26,785 nt of DNA from NCBI GenBank assembly GCA_020348985.1, contig CP070761.1:2864121-2890905 (forward strand), read 5' to 3'. Below are positions 3,167-26,043 of this stretch, piece by piece; position 1 is the stretch's first letter, and every line of letters begins with the position of its first letter. A program made the translations under genes and the position numbers. This stretch comes from Candidatus Thorarchaeota archaeon. GTDB taxonomy: Archaea; Asgardarchaeota; Thorarchaeia; Thorarchaeales; Thorarchaeaceae. The notes beneath the pieces are model-generated. The model was not told the DNA's origin. It searched no databases and saw only the letters and a program-made list of their open reading frames with translations.

Positions 3167-3532
3167 CTAGATCCAACTCAATGCATACCAAACAGTAAGC
3201 ACATTGAACAATAGTCCCACAACTATCAGAAATCTGTCATAGTATCCGGGATATGAACGCACCCCTGCGAGATTGAAGAGGAAAAGAAATGCTGCAGAGA
3301 TGATGTTTAGCCAGCCATTCACAGGATACGGCAGAATTAGGGTAATAGGAATCATAGCAATCGGAATCAGCATCAATACTGCGGCTCCCATCCACATTGC
3401 CTGAGTTGCTTCCTCACCGTCCATTTCTCCTGCTACAAAGTCGCCGGCGAATATCCGCATCACATCCCCCAAGAGATAGGTCAGCATTAGAGAAACCCAT
3501 AGTCCCGAGAGTATTATCTGTACGTCCTCCAT
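3167..3532 (-). CDS. DUF6326-like 4-TM membrane protein
   Basis: MEDVQIILSGLWVSLMLTYLLGDVMRIF...LIPIAMI...NGWLNII...VWYALSW matches the pattern I recall for DUF6326. ATG at 3532 is preferred because AAGGTGG lies upstream. Confidence 0.75.
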   Translation of the reverse strand: MEDVQIILSGLWVSLMLTYLLGDVMRIFAGDFVAGEMDGEEATQAMWMGAAVLMLIPIAMIPITLILPYPVNGWLNIISAAFLFLFNLAGVRSYPGYYDRFLIVVGLLFNVLTVWYALSWI

Positions 3533-3616
3533 GATCAACCACCTTGTAGTGGACACTGCAAAGCGGAATATAATCTCTGCTGAGTGCTCCTAGAGATGGA
3601 ATAACGGATGGAGTTT

Positions 3617-4717
3617 CTAGTCGACCCGACATTCCTTCAAGATGGTGTTCACCAATACATCCTCATAATGCTGCTTTTCATCCAGCATTGGATAGTGCCC
3701 TGAATCTTCAAAGATAATAAGCCTCTTCCCCTTCTCAGCGTTTAGACCGTTATAGAAATCCTGAACAACAACCATTGGAGTTATCATATCATATTTGCCT
3801 TCCATGAAGTATATGGGAACTTCTATCGAATCTATCTCTCTAGTGAAATTGATCTTTGTTATTTCATTCCATAATGCGTATGTGGTGAAATTCCGTCCTC
3901 TCCCTAGTATTGTTCTAATTCCTTCCAATAATGAGTATTCGGGAGAAGTCAAATAGGGCAGAATTAGACCAATCATTTTCCTAAAGGAAGGATCTAGCAT
4001 CATTCCTCCATATCGAACAATATAGTTGGCTTTATCCCATAGTTTCTTGGGGGTATCGTAAGGTGGAGGTCCAATCGCTTTAATCGCAAGTTGATGTCTT
4101 ACATTGCCTAATCTTTCAGCTTCTTCAATTGCAAAATCATAGGATATTCTCTCGTGTTCATGGTCGTTGATGATTTGCGCTACTCCGACATAGGCATGGA
4201 TTTTTCCCGGATATCTATGCGCTGTTCTGATTCCGATTAATGTTCCTGATGAATGCGCGACAATGAAAACCTTAGGTATGTCAAATCTAATTCGCAAATG
4301 ATCAATTAACTCATTACAATCTTCAACTAGTCTGTCCAGGGTCATTGAATCAACTGGGATATTAGAATGAAATGACTTCCCTCCTCCTCGTTGATCCCAA
4401 TGCACTACTGTGAAGTGCTTTATTAGCTCAGCATCTAATCTTCGGGAACTTGACATACCCACTGATGGTTCGCCAGGGCCACCGTGCAGGAATATCAATA
4501 CAGGGTTGTTTTGGTCCATACCTCTAATGAATATCCATTGCCTCAATCCTCCTAGTGTAACCTCCTCCAGTGAGCTTATTCCATTCTGTGTCTTTATTCT
4601 TGTTGAGTATCTCAAGTATTGCTTATACAGGAACAAGCCAACAAGGAGAAGTAAAAGGACTCCTGGTACACCGATGACTAACAATAGAACGATGTTCATT
4701 GCATTTCTCCACTTCAC
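3617..4717 (-). CDS. Membrane-anchored alpha/beta hydrolase (proline iminopeptidase-like)
   Basis: N-terminal TM, then FLHGGPG, WDQRGGGKS, AHSSG (catalytic Ser), GKYD and SGH. The true start may be the ATG at 4699. Confidence 0.85.
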   Translation of the reverse strand: MKWRNAMNIVLLLVIGVPGVLLLLLVGLFLYKQYLRYSTRIKTQNGISSLEEVTLGGLRQWIFIRGMDQNNPVLIFLHGGPGEPSVGMSSSRRLDAELIKHFTVVHWDQRGGGKSFHSNIPVDSMTLDRLVEDCNELIDHLRIRFDIPKVFIVAHSSGTLIGIRTAHRYPGKIHAYVGVAQIINDHEHERISYDFAIEEAERLGNVRHQLAIKAIGPPPYDTPKKLWDKANYIVRYGGMMLDPSFRKMIGLILPYLTSPEYSLLEGIRTILGRGRNFTTYALWNEITKINFTREIDSIEVPIYFMEGKYDMITPMVVVQDFYNGLNAEKGKRLIIFEDSGHYPMLDEKQHYEDVLVNTILKECRVD

Positions 4718-4811: not shown

Positions 4812-5195
4812 GTGGAAGATATCAAGAAGAAGCTCTCATTACTATGGGTAGCTCGTATGTTGACAAGCATTCAGGGTGATGTTTTACGGTTTTTTGAGCC
4901 TGGAATTCTGGAGGATATCATTGCAGGAACTCTAGATATTCCACTGACTGAGGAAATGTTGGCTGTCATGGCCATAATGATGCTGGTTCCAATCTTCATG
5001 GTTTTCCTCTCTTTGGAGTTGCCGTACAAAGCGAATCGCTGGGCAAACATCATCGTAGCCATAGTTTTCATCGCTATTGATGGCATCGGATTCATCATAC
5101 CAAGACCCTTGTATGAAAACATAATGGGAATTGGGTATGTTGTATTCTGTGCACTGATTGTTTGGTATGCATGGAAGTGGACTAAACCAGAATAG
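4812..5195 (+). CDS. DUF6326-like 4-TM membrane protein (paralog of 3167..3532)
   Basis: MEDIKKKLSLLWVARML...GDVLRFF...LVPIFMVFLSL...NRWANII...IVWYAWKW. GTG start with AGGTGAG upstream. Confidence 0.8.
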   Translation: MEDIKKKLSLLWVARMLTSIQGDVLRFFEPGILEDIIAGTLDIPLTEEMLAVMAIMMLVPIFMVFLSLELPYKANRWANIIVAIVFIAIDGIGFIIPRPLYENIMGIGYVVFCALIVWYAWKWTKPE

Positions 5196-14423: not shown

Positions 14424-15239
14424 TTATCTCTCTGCTGTCAATCCCAGTGTGATCCTTGCGGATCTAAACTGTTTGTGCTTCTTGTATCCAACTGCTGTTG
14501 CCATCATAGACCCGATGAAGACCAGAATCACTGAGAATGTGAACGCTCCAAAAAGAAGCGGGAGGAGCCACGGAATGGGATTGATCAGCAAATTGAAGTA
14601 GAGTCCCCTGCCAATCAGGAATGCGGCCTCTGCAACCAGTATGATTAGAAGCACTATTCCTGATCCTAGTTGTCGTTCATGAATGTACACCTGAAGTGCC
14701 GTCTGCAACAGAATCGCAGAGAGAAGATTCCCCAGAATGCTTAGGACAATAACAATATCACCGGGAAGGAAGAACATCGGAAGATTCGCTGAATGGGTTG
14801 TGAAGTACTGGAGATATATCATTGATAACACAAACACAAGTTCGAATATCATCATTAGTACAGCACCGAGCCCCGTAACCCGAAGGATTAGGTTGTCAAT
14901 ATTGTCAGCCCAATCCATGTTCACCAACTGTTGATACTCCCTGTTGAGTGGCTTTGCCCACTGACTCTCATCTACACAATACTCTTTGTCGCAGTTGACA
15001 ATGGTAAACAACTTGCCGCCATAGTCAGCAACCCTGTATTCGATATCTTCCTCACAGAACATCTCATTGCAAACATGACAGACTTCGACTGCAAGGCGAT
15101 CAGGATGTCTTGAACAATTCCGGTTCTGGTCGGATCCGAGAACTGGGCTGGCACAGTATTCACAACGATTGACTTTGTCATTATGCTCTATGGGGATTCG
15201 GCCGCCGCAGACTGGACACATGATATGCTGCACTTGCAA
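14424..15239 (-). CDS. Zn-ribbon + B-box-like zinc finger membrane protein (4 C-terminal TM)
   Basis: CPVCGG...CEYC, then CSRHPDRLAVEVCHVCNEMFC...CDKEYC, followed by four TM helices. Confidence 0.7.
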   Translation of the reverse strand: MQVQHIMCPVCGGRIPIEHNDKVNRCEYCASPVLGSDQNRNCSRHPDRLAVEVCHVCNEMFCEEDIEYRVADYGGKLFTIVNCDKEYCVDESQWAKPLNREYQQLVNMDWADNIDNLILRVTGLGAVLMMIFELVFVLSMIYLQYFTTHSANLPMFFLPGDIVIVLSILGNLLSAILLQTALQVYIHERQLGSGIVLLIILVAEAAFLIGRGLYFNLLINPIPWLLPLLFGAFTFSVILVFIGSMMATAVGYKKHKQFRSARITLGLTAER

Positions 15240-15240
15240 T

Positions 15241-16668
15241 TCAGTTCTGCCTCCTGAAATACGTCTCAGTCACATGTCGTTCACCAGCATATCTGGATCC
15301 TCTGTACTCCCAATCACGCTGGTCTTCTCTGAGAGTTGACTCCTTTGTCTTAGCAGGGGCACCAACAGCGATGCCCTTCTCTCTTGCTTCAGAGAGTGAC
15401 AGGAAGTCCGTTCGGCTGATGATCTTCACAGCCTCTATCGTAACCCCCACAAGTCCTGCATAGAACAGGAAAGGTATGATTACTATTGCACCCAGCAGCA
15501 ACACGACACCGATTGCCAACGGAATTGCTACTACGGCGACCACGACAGCAATCAGAACCATGGCTGCACCATCATTGCTGTTTCCTTTTCCTCCAGCCTT
15601 CATAACACTGGCTGCAAGTCTAAGTGTGAATTCCAGAACATATCTCATTACGGCACTGTACTTGCCGAGGAACTTCCTGTATATGCCACCGACTCTAGAG
15701 AACCTTGAACCAGCCTTGTCAAACAACTGGTCGATTGGTAGCACCAAGGATGTCGTTGTAACCGCTGGTCTGTAACGACCCTCAAAGCACTTCTGGCAGA
15801 TGTGTACAATTGAACCCTTCCATCGCTTATCCACAGGAGGCTCCTGCGCAGTCAAACACATGCGACAGAAGTGTTCACCACATACGTCACAGTTCGTGGC
15901 CGCCAGATACTCGGGATGATTCTCACAGGGTACAAACACGCTACTGACACCGAGCCTGACCCCACAATAGTCACATACCAGCGTGTTGTCGTCTTCGACC
16001 TTGGTCAACGGCGTTGCACCCCCACAATTGGAGCACAGGACTGCCATACCTTCATCTGTGGTTACACGACGCACATCCATGATTCTACGTGAATCATCAT
16101 CAGAGAGAGTCGTCTCACCATCTGGGGAAATCAGAGAGGGAGTGAGCGGACTTGGAACAATACCAGTGACAATCTGTTTGGCTATAACCCGGTCTCGCTC
16201 GACATAGACGTCTGAAGGAGGCGCCACCTCATTCCATTTGACAATGAGGTATAGAGCAAAAAACGCCTCAACTACAACAATGAAAACAGCGAGGTTTCCA
16301 ATTGCTACCTGAACTGAGATTTCATACAATGGGAATGCCCATTCGTATCCGATGCCCCAATACATCAAGAAGATGGCAGCCATGGCGATTGAGAAGAGAC
16401 TGTATAAAATCTGAGCGACTACTGCATTCCGTCGGAGGTCATCTACATAGTTGCCAATGACAAGGCATGGAATGACCACTCCAATCAACAAGACAACAGC
16501 ATATACAGGTCCCAAGTCCGCAACGCCAGGAACTCCCCCTACTATCGCCAGCACTAGACCAATAAAGGCAACGAGAGCCAAGAATCCGAAAGTCATCTGT
16601 GTCAGACCAATCATCCGAAGTCCGAAAGGTCGGTCGAAAATTGTCGCAGTTTGCGCTTCCTCAGACAC
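15241..16668 (-). CDS. Membrane protein with central Zn-ribbon + B-box-like zinc finger (4 N-terminal TM plus a C-terminal hydrophobic hairpin)
   Basis: CSNCGG...CDYC, then CENHPEYLAATNCDVCGEHFCRMC...CQKC. GTG start with GGAGGAG upstream. Confidence 0.7.
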   Translation of the reverse strand: MSEEAQTATIFDRPFGLRMIGLTQMTFGFLALVAFIGLVLAIVGGVPGVADLGPVYAVVLLIGVVIPCLVIGNYVDDLRRNAVVAQILYSLFSIAMAAIFLMYWGIGYEWAFPLYEISVQVAIGNLAVFIVVVEAFFALYLIVKWNEVAPPSDVYVERDRVIAKQIVTGIVPSPLTPSLISPDGETTLSDDDSRRIMDVRRVTTDEGMAVLCSNCGGATPLTKVEDDNTLVCDYCGVRLGVSSVFVPCENHPEYLAATNCDVCGEHFCRMCLTAQEPPVDKRWKGSIVHICQKCFEGRYRPAVTTTSLVLPIDQLFDKAGSRFSRVGGIYRKFLGKYSAVMRYVLEFTLRLAASVMKAGGKGNSNDGAAMVLIAVVVAVVAIPLAIGVVLLLGAIVIIPFLFYAGLVGVTIEAVKIISRTDFLSLSEAREKGIAVGAPAKTKESTLREDQRDWEYRGSRYAGERHVTETYFRRQN

Positions 16669-16854
16669 TTAGTTTTCTCCTCCGAATCCAGACCTTTGTG
16701 TGCAACTTGTCTCATCTCTGGGAGTTCTGTTTTTACTCTTTGCGTCTGGAGGGTAAACAATGCCAACGATATCCTGCACGATAGGCTCTTAAGTAGGAAC
16801 GACAAGCCACATCCAAGATTGTCAGACCTATAGGACAATTCGTGGGTGAATTCA

Positions 16855-17028
16855 ATGACCGAAATTCCTATGCCTAGTGATTACGGCGCGCAGCCGCCTC
16901 CGGCCGAGAAGAAAGGATTCTGCTCCAAAGTTTGTGAAGCCTCCTGTGTCGCGTTGGCTGCATGCATCATCTGCGTCCTTGCGATATTCATCATAATCAT
17001 GATAGCTCTAGGATTCTTCTTCTTCTAG
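16855..17028 (+). CDS. Small Pro-rich/Cys-rich tail-anchored membrane protein (CYSTM-like)
   Basis: MTEIPMPSDYGAQPPPAEKKGFCSKVCEASCVALAACIICVLAIFIIIMIALGFFFF, with GGGTGA just upstream. Confidence 0.6.
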   Translation: MTEIPMPSDYGAQPPPAEKKGFCSKVCEASCVALAACIICVLAIFIIIMIALGFFFF

Positions 17029-17201: not shown

Positions 17202-17879
17202 GTGTCTGATCAAGACGAAGAGAACAACACAATCGTAGGGGAGGCCGAGGGGCCTTTCGCAGGAATGGGCCGAATTGAACGAATCATGAGAGCCCTTGAG
17301 ATCACTAAGGGTGTTCAGATAGCACGCCGCTACCTGGCCATGAATGCCTTCGATGGCGCGCTTACAATGCTGGGTCTTATTCTCGGCGGCCTGATTACAA
17401 TAAACCCGTTGAATCCAATGCCTGGATTCACTGCAATACTCGTAGCCGCCGCAGGCACAAGCATCGCGATGGCGATCTCGGGTTTTAGTGGATCATATCT
17501 TGCTGAATCAGCGGAACGAGACCGAGAAGTGGAGGAAATGGGTAAGGCAATGCTCTCTGACATGAGCGAAACGATGTACGCTCACGCATCTAGAACAACT
17601 TCAGTCGTTGTTGCCGTCGTCGACGGACTCTCACCAGCAGGTGCTGCTCTCATCATCATAACACCGCTGTGGTTCGTGCCAGGTGGATATCTTGCGTACA
17701 ACATAGCCTTCTACATGGCAATTATCATATGTTTCGCGCTTCTTTTCGTTCTAGGAATGTTCCTGGGGACAGTTTCGAGAAGGAATATGTACATCTACGG
17801 GGCAAAGACGCTTCTTGCGGGTCTTGCCACCGCCGCGCTGATGCTTCTGATTTCTATTTTGACTGGTGGGAACATCTAG
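17202..17879 (+). CDS. VIT1/CCC1 family (archaeal TIGR00267-like) metal transporter
   Basis: ARRYLAMNAFDGALTMLG, AMAISGFSGSYLAESAER, DGLSP, LFVLGMFLG; five TM segments. Confidence 0.85.
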   Translation: MSDQDEENNTIVGEAEGPFAGMGRIERIMRALEITKGVQIARRYLAMNAFDGALTMLGLILGGLITINPLNPMPGFTAILVAAAGTSIAMAISGFSGSYLAESAERDREVEEMGKAMLSDMSETMYAHASRTTSVVVAVVDGLSPAGAALIIITPLWFVPGGYLAYNIAFYMAIIICFALLFVLGMFLGTVSRRNMYIYGAKTLLAGLATAALMLLISILTGGNI

Positions 17880-17881
17880 CT

Positions 17882-18865
17882 ATGTTCGAGCAGCAAGCTC
17901 GGGAACGGATTGCATTTCTACCAACGCCATTCCATCGCCTAAAGAATCTAGGACCCAACATTGGTCTCGACAACCTTTGGATAAAGAGAGATGATCTCAC
18001 CGGTCTCTCGGCTGGAGGAAACAAGACAAGGAAACTCGAGTTCGTCGTCGGTAGTGCTCTGAGAGAGTACGCTGACACGCTCGTCACTGTTGGGGCCGTC
18101 CAAAGTAACCATTGTAGACAGACAGCGGCAGTCTCCGCGATGAAAGGATTGAGATGTGTTCTTCTTCTGCGGGGTCAAGAACCGGAGTCTGAAACAGGGA
18201 ACCTCTTGATGTCTCGCCTCTTTGGAGCCGAAACGAAATTCTATCCAGATGATACATTTGACGAGCTCCAAGAACGCCTGACTTCAGTAACTGAGACCCT
18301 CACTGAACTTGGTTTGCGCCCATTTCCAATCCCAGCCGGTGCCGCCATGCCGGAGGGGATCATCGCCTATGCAGTGGCCATGGAGGAGCTTAAGACTCAA
18401 GCTACCGAACAGGGAACAGACATTGAGAGAATAGTCGTTGCGTCTGGCACATGTGGCACTCAGGCAGGAATGATACTTGGGGCGAAGTTGCTAGATTGGG
18501 ATGTACAAATCATTGGTGTAAGCACTTCGATTGACTCGGAGACGGGAGTTGCCAGGGTTAGGAAGTTGATTGACGAGACCACGGAGGCATACCCCGACGA
18601 AATCGACAAGTTCCTGCCCAAAGTGACTGTCGACGATCAGTTCGTCGGGGAAGGGTACGGAATTCTGAGCGAAGGTGCGAAGAGTGCAATCGAGCTATTC
18701 GGCAAAACAGAAGGCATCCTTCTAGACCCAGTGTATACAGGAAAGGCTGCCCTGGGGCTCATAAGGATGTCACTTGCAGGTGATATCGACCGAGATTCGC
18801 CTACTCTCTTTTGGCATACAGGTGGTATGCCTGCAGTCTTTGCCTATGCGAAAGAGTTGCAGTAG
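17882..18865 (+). CDS. D-cysteine desulfhydrase family PLP enzyme (DcyD-like)
   Basis: PTP, KRDD, GGNKTRKLEF (PLP Lys), QSNH, DPVYTGKA and HTGG. Thr at the two diagnostic positions indicates the desulfhydrase type rather than ACC deaminase (YEGK/HLGG). Start corrected to ATG 17882. Confidence 0.88.
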   Translation: MFEQQARERIAFLPTPFHRLKNLGPNIGLDNLWIKRDDLTGLSAGGNKTRKLEFVVGSALREYADTLVTVGAVQSNHCRQTAAVSAMKGLRCVLLLRGQEPESETGNLLMSRLFGAETKFYPDDTFDELQERLTSVTETLTELGLRPFPIPAGAAMPEGIIAYAVAMEELKTQATEQGTDIERIVVASGTCGTQAGMILGAKLLDWDVQIIGVSTSIDSETGVARVRKLIDETTEAYPDEIDKFLPKVTVDDQFVGEGYGILSEGAKSAIELFGKTEGILLDPVYTGKAALGLIRMSLAGDIDRDSPTLFWHTGGMPAVFAYAKELQ

Positions 18866-19749: not shown

Positions 19750-20667
19750 ATGCATAAAGAGGCTGCCAAGTTTACCAAGGCTTTCAAGGAACGTCTTGAC
19801 GCTGCGACTGATGAAAAGGTTCGAATAGTGATCAAAGAGCAGTACAAAGACGCATTCGACATACTCTCAGACTGCGAGAATGCAGGTCTTATCCCTGGAA
19901 TAATTGGCCCTCCGGGAATCGGCAAGACGCTGCTGTTGCGCGCGTACGCTGAGAAGAGCAGACGTGAGTTCCATTGGGTAACCGGTGATGAGGGCGTCCG
20001 GCCAAGTCATCTCATCGGGTCGTTTAACCCAGCTCTCGTCCTGGACAAAGGATTCAGTCTTGATTCATTTGAACCGGGTACACTTCTGAAGTCGATGGTT
20101 CTTGGGGGAGTGTTCGGTCTCAATGAGGCAAACCGTCTTCCAGAGTACGTCCAGAATAGTCTGTTAGAGCCTTTCGAAGAGCTGAGCGTCAATGTTCAAA
20201 GACTAGGCAGGGTCAAAGCCTCAGACGGTTTCTTTCCAGTGCTAACGCTAAACCCTGAGGAAATGGCAGGTGCTCACAGACTGAGTGAGGCTCTCAGAGA
20301 CCGAATTAGGGTTTGGATCAGACTAGGATATCCTCGCAAAGAGACGGAGATGGAGATAGTCCGTGTAAACTGTCCCGAGTACACGATAAGTGATGACACT
20401 CTGGAGAAGATCTACAGCCTGGTGTCATCGACGAGGATGACAACGGACATTGAGATTCCGGCATCAATTCGAGCAGGTATTTCTGTTGCCCGTCTTGCCG
20501 CAGAGATGACAAAACGTCAAAAAGAGAAGTCGACAAGTCATCAGACACTATCGAAGGCAGCAAGTTACGTTCTTTCGGGAGCGCTCAGATTCAGGCCAGG
20601 AATTGACCCTCAACCGGCGGTTGATGCGCTAATCAGGCGCTCCCTTGGAACAGGGAGGAAAGCCTAG
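19750..20667 (+). CDS. MoxR-family AAA+ ATPase
   Basis: Walker A GPPGIGKT, LIGSF, variant Walker B GLNEANR, TLNP, LSEALRDR (Arg finger), lid ASIRAGI. Confidence 0.9.
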   Translation: MHKEAAKFTKAFKERLDAATDEKVRIVIKEQYKDAFDILSDCENAGLIPGIIGPPGIGKTLLLRAYAEKSRREFHWVTGDEGVRPSHLIGSFNPALVLDKGFSLDSFEPGTLLKSMVLGGVFGLNEANRLPEYVQNSLLEPFEELSVNVQRLGRVKASDGFFPVLTLNPEEMAGAHRLSEALRDRIRVWIRLGYPRKETEMEIVRVNCPEYTISDDTLEKIYSLVSSTRMTTDIEIPASIRAGISVARLAAEMTKRQKEKSTSHQTLSKAASYVLSGALRFRPGIDPQPAVDALIRRSLGTGRKA

Positions 20668-20669
20668 AG

Positions 20670-23201
20670 TTGGCAATCACTCCAAAGATTACTCCAACGC
20701 CTAGCAATGTTCCGCCGTTTGCCCATGAGTTCGTAACACGTATGAGAGCTCACGAAGAAACCAAGACTAATCCAAGTGTGAGACAAACACAAGCTATTCC
20801 GATGCTGTTGTCAGCACGGTACTTCCGGAATGGAAAGTTGACACTCGATGACTTCATCGATGCTGCTGTATACACGACTTATCCAGCTGATCAAGGAATC
20901 GCTAGGATGATAGCTGAAGACATTGTGCTCGGAAGAGAGAAGCAGAAGGTTGAGATTGCCACCGATGTTAAGGCAGAAAGAAAGCCAGCGCTGTCAGAGC
21001 GGGAGAAACGCCTACAACAAGTGCTTGACAAGATCAAATGGGAACAGAACCTAGCGAAGACAATCAAGAAAGACAAAGTGCGCCAGGGTTTTGATTACCT
21101 ACAAGAACTTCTCAATAGGGAGGACGATGATCTCTACAAGGCGGCAAGACATCATCTCAAGGACGGTGATATAGTCCTCCGAGGCATATCCAGCGATGAT
21201 GGTCTCAAGCAACAAGCGGCCTCGGAACTGAGAGGGAAGTTTGGCGGCTTGACTTCTGAAGAGATTGAGAGCTCGAGAGTGATTGACGCTCTGAACGATA
21301 TCTGCGATAATGCGAGCGCAGCTGAACAACTTGCCGGAAGGGGACTGAGGGGAGACCGCAACGTTTCGGACTTGTTCAAGGACCTCGCTGAAAGAGATTC
21401 AAACACTGCTGCGAGGGCCTTAAAGCACCTAGAAGAAATGGGGGCCCTAGGACCCAGGAAAGAGAAGTCATTTGACAAAACACTCCAAGAGGCCATCCAG
21501 AACTTGAGCGAGGCGCGGGGATATTCATCTGAACTTGGCAGACCACCAGACAATATCCAAGATCATATCAATCAAGCTCCTTCGAAGTACTCTCTGGGAG
21601 ATGCCATGCAATTCGCAAAAGAGATTGGACAATCAACCGGCCAGAACTACGATGGCGATGTTTTGAAGCAATATGACGAGCAATTCGACACCAACAAGTC
21701 TCACAATGTTGACATGAGACAGCTCGCTGAATCTGCAACGAGCAATCCTCATTGGCATAGCCTTGTTCAAAAAAAGACCGCTGAAAACATAGAGAAAGCG
21801 GAATCAAGATCGTCTCCCTCCGATTTTCTACAGCAACACCTGGCAGAACTAGAGAAGCTGAGACGAGAGATTCCAAGTGGCAAGACTAGCCAAACTTGGA
21901 AAGAGGCAATGCAGAAGGTCGCAGACGCTGCCGTGAAATTCTCTCCAACAAAGACGCATCTTCGGCAGACCGTCAGACAGTGTTCGAGGATGGGCACGAT
22001 GCCCTCTCAAGAAGCGATTAGGGAGGCAGGTGGAAAGCTCGGTATGGATGAAGGAGAGATCCTGGAACTCCTTAGTCCATCTTTCAGGATAATCAAGCAA
22101 CTCGTCAAACAAGGTGTTTCTGACTTCGATCGACTACGTAGTCTAATTGCGTCTGCTGGTCTAACGAATGAACAGCTTGAAGAACTGGCAGACATCGCGG
22201 CTGAGAGTGGTAATCAGTCTGCACTTGGAGCTATTGCTCATGAGAACCTACCGGCGGCGTTGGGGCAGAGTGGAGCCCGGAGGGGCTACGGCAGACCTGG
22301 ACCTATTCCCGCACCACATGAAGAGAAAGGCAAAGAGAGAGTTGACCTGGTTTTTGGCGGGCTCTTGGGAGGTCCTGCCACTTCCATCATCAGGATGTGG
22401 TATACATACCGTGATCAGCTTCCTCCAGAGCTCAACGAACGACTTCGGTTGATTGCGAAGCGACTTCTTATAGACCTAGGAATGAGGTTCGCAAAGCAAA
22501 CAATGGGTACTTCAATGCTGGGAGGTATACAGCTTTCCACCACTGTGAGGCCGTTCCGTATTGGTGATGATATCGACCTCATCGATCTCGAGGAGACGAT
22601 AGATCACTTGTTATCAGAAGGAAGGACGGACTTCAAGATTGTCGAGCCAGAGGACTTCAGGATTGCGGAGACTTATCATGGACACAGATGTTTCGTGTGG
22701 GCGCTGGACAAAAGTGGATCGATGGACAGTGCAGAGAAGCTTGGAATGCTCGCAATTTCGGTGATGGCGGGATTGTATGCTGTTCAAAAGGATGACTTCG
22801 GAGTAGTTCTGTTTGACCATTCAACTCACATTGTCAAGAACGTTACAGAGAAGAAGGTATCAGTTGACAAGGTTGCCGCATATCTTCTTGAAGCCAGAGC
22901 AGGAGGTGGAACTGGAGCAGCACACACAATGGAATGGGCACTGAAAAACTTCGAAGAAACCAGGGCCAAAGAGAAGATCTTCATTCTGAATACTGACATG
23001 TACCTGAGTGACCAATCAAAATGTGAAGAGATAGCCTCGAGGATGAAGCAACAAGATATCAAAGTCGTTGTTATTGTTCCGAAGACTTCCTATAACCGTC
23101 AAGCTGCAAATGCTCTCGCAAAGAAGTCTCATGGAGTTGTATTGGATATTGGCACAATAGATGAGCTTCCAGAGCGACTTCTAAGAGTCACGAACTACTA
23201 G
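20670..23201 (+). CDS. Large VWA-domain protein, MoxR partner (CoxE-like C-terminus)
   Basis: 843 aa. Long helical region, RPFRIGDD..IDLEETI motif, MIDAS DKSGS...GGT...TD. Starts 2 nt after the ATPase stop. Confidence 0.85.
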   Translation: MAITPKITPTPSNVPPFAHEFVTRMRAHEETKTNPSVRQTQAIPMLLSARYFRNGKLTLDDFIDAAVYTTYPADQGIARMIAEDIVLGREKQKVEIATDVKAERKPALSEREKRLQQVLDKIKWEQNLAKTIKKDKVRQGFDYLQELLNREDDDLYKAARHHLKDGDIVLRGISSDDGLKQQAASELRGKFGGLTSEEIESSRVIDALNDICDNASAAEQLAGRGLRGDRNVSDLFKDLAERDSNTAARALKHLEEMGALGPRKEKSFDKTLQEAIQNLSEARGYSSELGRPPDNIQDHINQAPSKYSLGDAMQFAKEIGQSTGQNYDGDVLKQYDEQFDTNKSHNVDMRQLAESATSNPHWHSLVQKKTAENIEKAESRSSPSDFLQQHLAELEKLRREIPSGKTSQTWKEAMQKVADAAVKFSPTKTHLRQTVRQCSRMGTMPSQEAIREAGGKLGMDEGEILELLSPSFRIIKQLVKQGVSDFDRLRSLIASAGLTNEQLEELADIAAESGNQSALGAIAHENLPAALGQSGARRGYGRPGPIPAPHEEKGKERVDLVFGGLLGGPATSIIRMWYTYRDQLPPELNERLRLIAKRLLIDLGMRFAKQTMGTSMLGGIQLSTTVRPFRIGDDIDLIDLEETIDHLLSEGRTDFKIVEPEDFRIAETYHGHRCFVWALDKSGSMDSAEKLGMLAISVMAGLYAVQKDDFGVVLFDHSTHIVKNVTEKKVSVDKVAAYLLEARAGGGTGAAHTMEWALKNFEETRAKEKIFILNTDMYLSDQSKCEEIASRMKQQDIKVVVIVPKTSYNRQAANALAKKSHGVVLDIGTIDELPERLLRVTNY

Positions 23202-24418: not shown

Positions 24419-24745
24419 TTGAGGATTCTGAATATTAGTCGTAGAGCATACCTGCACTGGGTCAACAACGTTAGGCCGGGTCTTATCACTCGGACCAAGA
24501 TCATTCTCCTGCTAGAGGAGGGCATACCCCTCAGCCCTACCGAGATTTCTGGCTCTGTCGGCGTCACAGCAAGTACGGTGAGTCACCATCTATTCAATAT
24601 GGAGCGGGAAGAGATCGTGCAACGCTTCCCGGAGGACCCGAAGCGTTGGACGATGGGACCATGGCTACAGGCTGACCTCTCAGAGTATTTGCGAAGTGGC
24701 AAGCGCACTCCAAAGAAGAAGCGGACCCATAGGAAGAAACGGTAG
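24419..24745 (+). CDS. ArsR-like winged helix-turn-helix protein with basic C-terminal tail
   Basis: RTKIILLL...LSPTEISGSVGVTASTVSHHLFNMEREEIV...W, then QADLSEYL and KRTPKKKRTHRKKR. Confidence 0.8.
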   Translation: MRILNISRRAYLHWVNNVRPGLITRTKIILLLEEGIPLSPTEISGSVGVTASTVSHHLFNMEREEIVQRFPEDPKRWTMGPWLQADLSEYLRSGKRTPKKKRTHRKKR

Positions 24746-24759
24746 GGGTCGAAGGAAGA

Positions 24760-26043
24760 GTGGGTGAAGAAGATACGGACTCCGAAGGGATTGGCGTTCT
24801 AATTTCCAAAGTCGACCCAAAGTCCCGATGGACAAATGAACTATTAGAATCGACTCACCTTGTACCAAGTGATACCAGAACCTTGGATCTTAGAGGGCAA
24901 AGCATTCGATCAATTGACCTGAGGCCGCTTACCATGCTACCTAGCCTTGAAATTCTGCATCTAGGGTTCAACGAACTAAGCGAAATCGATCTTAATCCAC
25001 TGGCAACATGTGTCAGCTTGACGGAACTTGACTTGGGAATAACTCCACACTCGGGCTATGTTGGGAACTCTATCCAACAGATTGACCTCAACCCGATTTC
25101 CAAATGCAGCGAACTTCGAAGACTCAGTCTTAGCGGAAACCAGCTGCGTTCGGTTGACCTTGATCCACTTGGTGAATGCGAAAGAATTAGTGAATTGGAT
25201 CTTTCTAGAAATCCTTTGAAAGAAATCGACCTTACACCCTTGAGCTCATCCAATTCACTCAATCGAATCGACCTTGGATTCTGCGAACTTGAAAGAGTGA
25301 TCCTTCCTCGAAGTAAATCGCTACAAACCCTAAGTCTTGAATGCAATCGACTTGCATCGATTGATCTAGAGCCGCTACGTGATTGCTCAGCTTTAATTGA
25401 TCTGGGTTTGGATGGCAACCCCCTAGAATCACTGAACGTGTGGCCCGTTATCGATTGCCCACGTCTCGACCTTGGTGACCAATCCTTCTTCTATCAGAAG
25501 GTAGTGCTTGCTGCCCTGGGAATGTCAGAGCTCTTCTGCTATGATGGGGATCTCATGGATGTCATGAGAGCGGCAAAATCTGAAAGTGAATCAGACGTTC
25601 GAGTAGCGGAGGTCTACAGGATTCTTGTCTCGAGGCTTGAGAAACAGATAGGAAGAAGGGGCCCGACGCTGTTCTTGGGAGTGGAGAAGTTGTCAAGAAC
25701 TCAGGCATCAAAGCTAGTTCCGCTCATTGTTGAAAGAAGAAATGAAGAGGTAGCAGAGACAACAGTTCTTGTCTCTGGTGGCGTTGCTGACTTGCGGCCG
25801 TTATTGCTGACCGAATATGGATTCAGAGTCATGACATCTCTTGGAGTTGATCCTGAGGTCTCAGAAAGGACCCTCAATAGCGTTAGAGATGCCTTAGCAG
25901 ATATTGGCCTTGAGCTGTCCATTACCAGAGATCCTTGCGAGAAGAGATGGGGAGTAGTCATGTCTGAGAGTATGAAACGCTATATCTTCCAATTGGCACA
26001 TCAGGCAAGGGAAAGGGAAGTTCAGCTGCGGAATCCGTCCTAG
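24760..26043 (+). CDS. Leucine-rich repeat protein (24-residue LxxLxLxxNxLxxIDLxPL repeats) with a non-repeat C-terminal domain
   Basis: About 8 LRR units, e.g. LEILHLGFNELSEIDLNPLATCVS. C-terminal region contains GPTLFL...DLRPLLLTEYGF. Confidence 0.85.
   Translation: MGEEDTDSEGIGVLISKVDPKSRWTNELLESTHLVPSDTRTLDLRGQSIRSIDLRPLTMLPSLEILHLGFNELSEIDLNPLATCVSLTELDLGITPHSGYVGNSIQQIDLNPISKCSELRRLSLSGNQLRSVDLDPLGECERISELDLSRNPLKEIDLTPLSSSNSLNRIDLGFCELERVILPRSKSLQTLSLECNRLASIDLEPLRDCSALIDLGLDGNPLESLNVWPVIDCPRLDLGDQSFFYQKVVLAALGMSELFCYDGDLMDVMRAAKSESESDVRVAEVYRILVSRLEKQIGRRGPTLFLGVEKLSRTQASKLVPLIVERRNEEVAETTVLVSGGVADLRPLLLTEYGFRVMTSLGVDPEVSERTLNSVRDALADIGLELSITRDPCEKRWGVVMSESMKRYIFQLAHQAREREVQLRNPS

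Follow-up and report, generated by a model that had tools for sequence, protein, structure and literature searches.

B-box zinc fingers mediate self-association, and the eukaryotic TRIM-type B-box (Pfam family PF00643) is represented here by B-box1 of MID1 (2ffw) and the B-box of TRIM2 (8ams). Prokaryotes have membrane-associated B-box proteins of their own, described by Burroughs, Iyer and Aravind (2011) and, in the accessible part of a later summary (PMC4506424), defined by a B-box-type finger joined to transmembrane (TM) segments in an organism without an obvious ubiquitin context; the fingers are cytoplasmic binuclear treble clefs and, according to the proposal summarised there, are tied to the folding, stability and proteolysis of membrane proteins. 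Here we describe two adjacent genes, A and B, in a stretch of 26,785 nucleotides (hereafter the window; contig CP070761.1, positions 2,864,121 to 2,890,905) that is part of the 3.16-Mb single-contig genome, 86% complete, of a Candidatus Thorarchaeota archaeon. Both products carry a B-box-type finger on TM segments with no ubiquitin system evident and belong to this class as that part of the summary defines it. They differ from the class as outlined there in being two distinct polytopic proteins, each with a zinc ribbon plus a B-box, which form a fixed pair, are predicted to heterodimerise through their fingers and have orphan membrane domains.

Genes A and B are co-oriented and 1 nt apart, as the first-pass annotation of the window had reported and as the coordinates of their open reading frames (ORFs) confirm, with base 15240 alone separating the stop codon of A from the start codon of B (Table 1). 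A Shine-Dalgarno-like GGAGGAG precedes the GTG of gene A, and a second such sequence, AGGAGG, lies within the last codons of A, 10 nt before the TTG of gene B, a placement that fits coupled translation of the two. The proteins are well conserved, with identities of 51-64% for A in 19 relatives and of 55-72% for B in 18. Database searches returned 182 homologues of A, all unnamed or hypothetical and mostly labelled Thorarchaeota, and 126 of B, several of them named 'B-box zinc finger protein' automatically by NCBI and four with a precomputed PF00643 label. All existing labels across the two families are automatic ('hypothetical', 'B-box zinc finger protein', 'FYVE zinc finger domain-containing protein', 'RPC12/RpoP').

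The pair is conserved as a unit. The A query matched 32 of the 36 genomes of the same family and the sole genome sampled from a second family of the order, with no match in the 23 genomes that represented 16 other families of the phylum, and the A-B pair has so far not been seen outside the order to which this Thorarchaeota genome belongs. A B-type module match lay directly downstream of A on the same contig in all 33 relatives with A, and the order A then B was seen at ORF level in 19/19 loci, where the spacing of the longest ORFs ranged from a 113-nt overlap to a 7-nt gap (the longest ORF of B overlaps A by more than 60 nt in G012 and G018). The linkage in other genomes on which the first-pass annotation had made its proposal depend was borne out. 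In the 17-kb loci, an adenine deaminase gene is convergent with the pair and adjoins B in 14/16, and genes for a VIT1-like protein, a pyridoxal phosphate (PLP)-dependent enzyme, a MoxR protein and a VWA-domain protein recur on the other side (16 loci). All of these neighbours are absent from the genome of the other family, G037, in which the A-B pair is intact. Since the pair was kept there while the surrounding synteny was lost, the pair is the conserved unit and its neighbours reflect family synteny.

What A and B have in common is a cysteine-rich module with 12 ligand positions, four in a zinc ribbon and eight in a cross-brace finger, which by our count gives 24 Cys/His ligands in the pair. 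The modules span 15778-16044 in A and 14970-15227 in B, in agreement with the approximate limits given in the first-pass annotation (15787-16035 and 14976-15218). Its motif layout was also borne out, save for the spacer inside the ribbon, given as x12/13, which is x12 in B and x14 in A. All 12 positions are invariant in the 80 A orthologues; in B, 11 positions are invariant in 81/81 orthologues, and position 65 is Cys in 76/81 and Asp in 5/81. The gene B of the window is among these five, and the reported difference between CEED in B and CRMC in A (D65 versus C271) was confirmed. The two modules align by BLASTP at 35% identity over 60 residues (E 1e-9), and the two family profiles align by hhalign with a probability of 98.3% (E 2.1e-14); the zinc modules of A and B are homologous.

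The first sub-domain has the hallmarks of a zinc ribbon, with two CxxC knuckles 12-16 residues apart (CxxC-x16-CxxC in A and CxxC-x14-CxxC in B) and strands flanking each knuckle in the models of both proteins. In a profile search of the PDB, the module matched the ribbons of RNA polymerase subunit P/Rpo12 (E 7.3e-5) and LysW (E 4e-4), as well as the B-boxes of TRIM2 (E 9e-4) and MID1 (E 1.5e-3). C2H2 arrays (PRDM9, ZNF568) topped this search and were set aside as artefacts of cysteine composition, so that the ribbon and TRIM/MID1 rows alone were used.

The second sub-domain appears, from its sequence and its models, to be a B-box/FYVE-like binuclear cross-brace finger. Its first six ligands fit the B-box pattern C-x2-H-x8-C-x2-C-x4-C-x2-C/D, which it shares with the TRIM-type domains, and 76/81 B orthologues matched PF00643 at E ≤ 0.01 (best 1.6e-5), with 16/81 matching the ANCHR-like B-box. 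The B-box-like assignment of the first-pass annotation is thereby supported by sequence for the B family, but it must be qualified, since the window copies score below the PF00643 gathering cut-off of 24.1 bits (A 18.7, B 16.7), and the spacer before the last ligands and the fold match of A are FYVE-like. The B-box was absent from the Pfam matches of window A and B in hmmscan at E ≤ 1, and the Pfam B-box matches cover only positions 2-31 of the 42 in the profile. The last ligand pair of a classical B-box follows only a few residues downstream, whereas the distance here is 19 residues in A and 17 in B, where a beta-hairpin (residues 66-83; strands 66-73 and 76-83 in the AlphaFold2 model) is inserted in the finger. 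The pair also differs from TRIM-type proteins in being archaeal and membrane-embedded and in having no RING or coiled coil.

Among A orthologues, 20/80 matched FYVE and 19/80 matched IBR at E ≤ 0.01, and window A scores 16.3 bits for FYVE (PF01363), under the cut-off of 27.8. Foldseek searches with the A finger placed rabphilin-3A (1zbd_B) at rank 1 and returned the finger of Rim2 (2a20) with a probability of 0.99, a TM-score of 0.67 and a root-mean-square deviation of 2.1 over 59 columns, with no solved B-box among the matches in the fold-search lists. Rim2 and rabphilin-3A are FYVE-related proteins without lipid binding, and they resemble the A finger both as its best structural matches and in the long spacer before the final CxxC. 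That spacer, together with the match to Rim2, suggests a finger that is FYVE-like rather than a classical B-box. Unlike these relatives, A and B have no Rab-binding helices, and the FYVE phosphoinositide-binding motif (R/K)(R/K)HHCR occurs in 0/80 A and 0/81 B sequences.

We modelled A (residues 1-440) and B (1-271) together in one complex prediction, for the heteromer only, with a separate alignment for each protein and three controls. The A-B ipSAE scores were 0.69, 0.64 and 0.62 (median 0.64), against 0.00 for the best of the three controls, and the 0.64 mark is reached by 116/157 solved complexes and 2/215 mismatched pairs, counts that are rough here since our own alignments were used. The runs agreed in at least 76% of contacts, with a partner predicted local distance difference test (pLDDT) score of at least 75. 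The predicted interface joins the A zinc module (210-298) to B residues 4-79, with the lowest-error contacts between A 257-264 and B 73-79 and between A 237-246 and B 4-15, and the hairpin of A (399-417) to TM1/TM2 of B (119-137, 164-187); the N-terminal 4-TM bundle of A lies outside it. Residues at least 90% conserved are enriched at the interface in both A (odds ratio 2.5, p 7e-4) and B (odds ratio 3.2, p 9e-5), though this check shares its alignments with the model and hence is not fully independent. We take the prediction as support for binding, short of proof. The first-pass annotation had proposed a heteromer joined through its zinc fingers: the predicted interface does cover both modules, and it adds contacts between the A hairpin and the B bundle to those of the fingers.

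Outside the module, A and B have no detectable similarity. Models made with AlphaFold2 from 80-row (A) and 81-row (B) alignments reached a mean pLDDT of 73 for A and 88.8 for B, the bundle of B standing out as a block at 87-97 over residues 111-260. Along A, the parts run in the order 4-TM bundle, linker, zinc ribbon, cross-brace finger, conserved linear motif, amphipathic helix, TM hairpin and charged tail. The models and hydropathy confirm that the module follows four TM segments and precedes a long hydrophobic hairpin in A and is N-terminal to four TM segments in B, as first described, but the accompanying idea of mirror-image architectures does not strictly hold, because the membrane domains are unrelated and the module of A is flanked by TM segments on either side. 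Homology between the membrane domains of A and B, and between the N-terminal bundle of A and its C-terminal part, was considered and rejected at hhalign probabilities of 0.4% (A against B membrane domains), 0.2% and 1.5%.

Several stretches beyond the ligands are strongly conserved. In the bundle of A, residues 9-18 (TIFDRPxGLR) and 72-86 (GNYVDDLRRxAVxAQ) form conserved cytoplasmic motifs, and the TM3-TM4 loop holds a short beta-hairpin on the outside (110-121). The linear motif that follows the A finger has nine residues invariant in 80 sequences (P301, A302, V303, T305, S307, V309, P311, L315 and F316) and a model pLDDT below 50 at residues 299-312, and it runs into a long basic amphipathic helix (312-358 in the model). 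Conserved polar residues are found in the bundle of B (E133, N171, Q179, Q183, H187 and R211). The predicted outside loops of both proteins contain no Lys or Arg and are very short (9 and 19 residues), while the A N-terminus, both TM2-TM3 loops and both C-terminal tails are rich in these residues. This charge distribution places both zinc modules in the cytoplasm, a prediction that speaks against their lying on opposite membrane faces.

Table 1. Genes A and B, their parts and a neighbouring small ORF, with positions in the window.
Feature	Position	Strand	Residues	Description
Gene A	15241-16668	-	475 aa	GTG start; 6-TM membrane protein; ORF and translation
A N-terminal 4-TM bundle	16219-16668	-	1-150	Confident bundle at 15-143 (AlphaFold2)
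A zinc ribbon	15949-16044	-	209-240	C212-x2-C215-GG-x14-C232-x-Y-C235; ligands invariant in 80/80
A binuclear cross-brace finger, probably B-box/FYVE-like	15778-15933	-	246-297	C248-x2-H251-P-x7-C260-x2-C263-x4-C268-x2-C271, C291-x2-C294; ligands invariant in 80/80
A linear motif RPAVTTTSLVIPIDxLF	15721-15771	-	300-316	Strongly conserved; low-confidence stretch of the model
A hydrophobic TM hairpin	15412-15573	-	about 366-419	Hydropathy segment 362-418; helix 367-419
Gene B	14424-15239	-	271 aa	TTG start; N-terminal zinc module and C-terminal 4-TM bundle; ORF and translation
B zinc ribbon	15138-15227	-	5-34	C8-x2-C11-GG-x12-C26-x-Y-C29; ligands invariant in 81/81; aligns with the A ribbon
B cross-brace finger, probably B-box-like	14970-15122	-	40-90	C42-x2-H45-P-x7-C54-x2-C57-x4-C62-x2-D65, C83-x4-C88
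B 4-TM helical bundle	14448-14915	-	109-264	Helices 109-146, 161-183, 187-214 and 225-264
Possible accessory ORF	16846-17028	+	60 aa	Cys-rich; one C-terminal TM helix; divergent from gene A

Searches with the whole proteins and with their membrane domains gave no known family. No family scored above its cut-off in Pfam and NCBIfam scans of A and B, no defence family was found at E ≤ 0.1 in a PADLOC-DB 2.0 scan of A, B and the 60-aa ORF, and the whole A and B models had no Foldseek match in the PDB at E ≤ 0.001, with generic four-helix-bundle matches only for the bundle of B. In the ESM Atlas, the best feature scores for the TM domains (0.86 and 0.77) were below a meaningful level, and the structural rows (DsbB, VKOR, PEMT) were all under the bar. 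None of the 80 A or 81 B members matched rhomboid at E ≤ 0.01, and G.SG, counted anywhere in the protein, occurs in 46/80 A and 3/81 B sequences and is not conserved, in keeping with the initial remark that no rhomboid GxSG motif is evident. Tetraspanins (CD53 6wvg, CD9 6k4j, Tspan15 8esv) were among the nearest known systems compared, and the combination by which they are recognised, a 4-TM bundle whose second extracellular loop is large and contains cysteines (CCG), was not seen in the pair. In short, neither a catalytic motif nor a known membrane-domain family was recognised in A or B.

The module itself has relatives outside the pair. Against 1.84 billion representative proteins, the A profile gave 47 matches at E ≤ 0.001, of which 21 were A orthologues or fragments and 26 covered the zinc module only, and the database searches detected no relatives of either membrane domain outside the pair. 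The proteins matched in the module only are small, of about 160-260 aa, and in them the same 12 ligands precede a two-TM hairpin and, often, a conserved helical tail at the C-terminus; the A-family profile matches them at E 8e-8 to 8e-4, and one of them, P0275, reaches 24.8 bits for PF00643. Their order of parts is that of the C-terminal half of A, but they are single genes that lack both the N-terminal 4-TM bundle of A and the 4-TM bundle of B, and many have the helical tail. Loci of this small family are from Bathyarchaeia/Bathyarchaeota in 33/39 cases and from Thorarchaeota in two, the remainder being weak partial matches, and the genes conserved around them have housekeeping roles (formyltransferase FTR, aRF1, an aminotransferase, MFS, a class-I tRNA synthetase and DinB).

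Within this group, we observed a family of about 230 aa, mostly in Bathyarchaeia (L055-L087), with ribbon, B-box, two-TM hairpin and a helical tail of the form LYxxLLxxYVxxWG...EAVRxI; its genes often follow FTR-aRF1-aminotransferase(-MFS) genes and precede an 85-aa zinc-ribbon ORF. Tandem arrays of four to five small paralogues occur in two Thorarchaeota genomes that belong to one genus (L052, G034:C3, about 69.9-75.2 kb; L053, G012:C36, about 50.0-55.3 kb); the paralogues are built of zinc ribbon, B-box and TM hairpin, some with a second, C-terminal zinc ribbon. An ABC-2 transporter ATPase/permease pair is interspersed among them, and the arrays adjoin roadblock-like and small-GTPase-like genes. 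In other Asgard families, profile matches were confined to the B-box-plus-TM part. Separately, a weak B-box profile match (18.6 bits; G000:C1:2974435-2974518) was seen about 95 kb downstream of the A-B pair, within an open frame of 524 aa.

With no recognisable catalytic motif in either protein, the most likely role is that of a scaffold or adaptor anchored in the membrane, and we put at roughly 55% the probability that A and B, encoded by a translationally coupled two-gene operon, are the subunits of a hetero-oligomeric complex of this kind. Under this reading, each subunit would present to the cytoplasm a module for three zinc ions, in which a C4 zinc ribbon is fused to a binuclear cross-brace finger, and the modules of A and B would pair with each other. 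The C-terminal TM hairpin of A would pack on TM1/TM2 of B to give a six-helix membrane core, leaving the N-terminal 4-TM bundle of A free, and the paired fingers, together with the invariant cytoplasmic motifs of A, may serve as a docking platform for a cytoplasmic or membrane client. By analogy, such a role would agree with the one in folding, stability and proteolysis that the accessible part of PMC4506424 reports as proposed for prokaryotic membrane B-boxes. Of the elements of this reading, the paired genes, the homologous modules, their conserved ligands and the synteny are established, the topology and the heteromer are predictions, and the scaffold or quality-control function is inferred.

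Several points weigh against this reading. Two members of the same family with fairly complete genomes, G011 (97% complete) and G016 (93%), gave no match with the A query, so the pair may not be essential. The neighbours of the pair yield no functional clue. The scaffold or quality-control role is drawn from analogy and from a second-hand summary available in part (PMC4506424), and A-B binding from a single in-silico heteromer prediction. The zinc module of A (209-297) is modelled at moderate confidence (pLDDT 60-79), and for this module alone the enrichment of conserved residues at the interface is not significant (p 0.19).

The alternative that survives best, though we consider it unlikely, is that A and B are two independent membrane-anchored B-box proteins, domain paralogues co-regulated in one operon, each working alone or as a homo-oligomer in the way that TRIM B-boxes self-associate. 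It would account for the lack of relationship between the membrane domains (hhalign probability below 2%), for the small single-gene relatives with the same module, mostly in Bathyarchaeia, and for the tandem paralogue arrays of the two Thorarchaeota genomes. Independent action is harder to reconcile with two genes that are never apart in 33 relatives with A, with a tight spacing or overlap that suggests coupled translation and so matched stoichiometry, and with a heteromer prediction that passed while the controls scored 0.00.

Somewhat less likely still is a signalling device, in which the pair, tethered to the membrane, would act as a sensor or sequestering factor: a signal from outside or from within the membrane, or the zinc or redox state of the 24 Cys/His ligands, would alter the pairing of the fingers so that a cytoplasmic regulator is released or bound, in the manner of zinc-binding anti-sigma factors. 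The joining of a TM sensor domain to a cytoplasmic zinc module has the right form, the invariant cytoplasmic motifs of A (9-18, 72-86 and 300-316) fit partner binding, and one ligand tolerates a Cys/Asp swap; bacterial ZnR and B-box domains have also been found in membrane stress-response contexts, according to the accessible part of PMC11237479. However, no regulator, kinase or HTH (helix-turn-helix) gene is conserved beside the pair, and outside loops of 9 and 19 residues leave little room for ligand sensing.

We regard as improbable a membrane-bound RING-like ligase or adaptor of ubiquitin-like conjugation, whose cross-brace fingers would recruit an E2-like enzyme to membrane substrates. 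B-box, RING, IBR and FYVE fingers do have a common binuclear cross-brace fold, and the IBR matches in the A family noted above point the same way. Yet the 86%-complete genome of the window has no match to UQ_con (E2, PF00179), a weak test given that the control genomes also gave none, and the conserved neighbours of 33 loci, mostly of Bathyarchaeia and 31 of them with the small protein, are housekeeping genes with no ubiquitin-system gene among them. To our knowledge, Thorarchaeota have been reported without the Asgard ubiquitin gene set, which also counts against a ligase.

A bolder form of the scaffold idea, to which we give the same low standing as the ligase, would make the pair an Asgard-specific membrane-organising complex with six zinc ions. 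A tetraspanin-like 4-TM scaffold subunit and a second 4-TM subunit, heterodimerised through B-box/FYVE-like fingers, would recruit cytoplasmic machinery such as small GTPases, ESCRT or cytoskeletal factors to membrane patches, as an archaeal forerunner of the cross-brace fingers (FYVE, RING, B-box) on eukaryotic endomembranes. Least probable of all is a channel or transporter with a pore formed by the B bundle and the A hairpin and gated by the zinc modules, for although conserved polar residues lie inside the B TM helices (E133, N171, Q179, Q183, R211), the four TM helices weakly resemble pannexin/LRRC8, TARP/claudin and MS4A, and a VIT1-like metal transporter gene is nearby in several loci, all structural scores are within the range expected of any helical bundle, several residues in question are in the predicted A-B interface (N171, A175, L182), which fits assembly better than permeation, and no transporter family was matched in the A or B scans.

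The Cys-rich ORF upstream of gene A is probably a real gene for a small membrane protein, and its membership of the A-B system is uncertain. By tblastn it was placed directly upstream of and divergent from A in 3/15 relatives' loci (L039, L046 and L050) and about 3 kb from A in two more of the 15, and it had no Pfam or PADLOC match. Beyond it, the longest ORF of the PLP-dependent enzyme (17669-18865, +) overlaps the VIT1-like gene (17202-17879, +) by about 210 nt; its true start probably lies at the Met of MFEQQARE near 17882, which would make the genes abut without overlap. A gene for a MoxR-type AAA ATPase (19750-20667, +) is followed by one for an 843-aa VWA-domain protein (20670-23201, +), and these lie near the A-B pair in 7/16 loci. 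Farther out in the window, two DUF6326 paralogues (3167-3556, -, and 4812-5195, +) flank an alpha/beta-hydrolase gene (3617-4717), and an ArsR-type HTH gene (24419-24745, +) is directly followed by a gene for a 427-aa leucine-rich-repeat protein (24760-26043, +).

The literature searches found no paper on the A-B pair and none uniting B-box and Thorarchaeota, and the Asgard and archaeal B-box zinc papers do not deal with it. To that extent the first-pass view of an undescribed system holds, but membrane-anchored prokaryotic B-boxes are already described in the accessible part of PMC4506424, and the same module occurs on the small two-TM proteins. What is new is the fixed pair of unrelated polytopic proteins, each with a ribbon and a B-box and predicted to heterodimerise through their fingers.

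No closer relatives of eukaryotes are known than the Asgard archaea, whose membrane biology experiments have hardly begun to explore. In A and B, one of their orders has a well-conserved, predicted two-subunit membrane complex built on the cross-brace fingers (B-box, FYVE, RING) that eukaryotes use for assembly at membranes. The pair is open to direct tests: its interface has been predicted, its 24 metal ligands are defined, and its invariant cytoplasmic motifs could act as bait in the search for a client. Even if its function proves mundane, the A/B family merits a name to replace 'hypothetical protein'. If the heteromer is true, we know of no earlier case of an archaeal B-box-type finger bringing about a specific hetero-association of membrane proteins.

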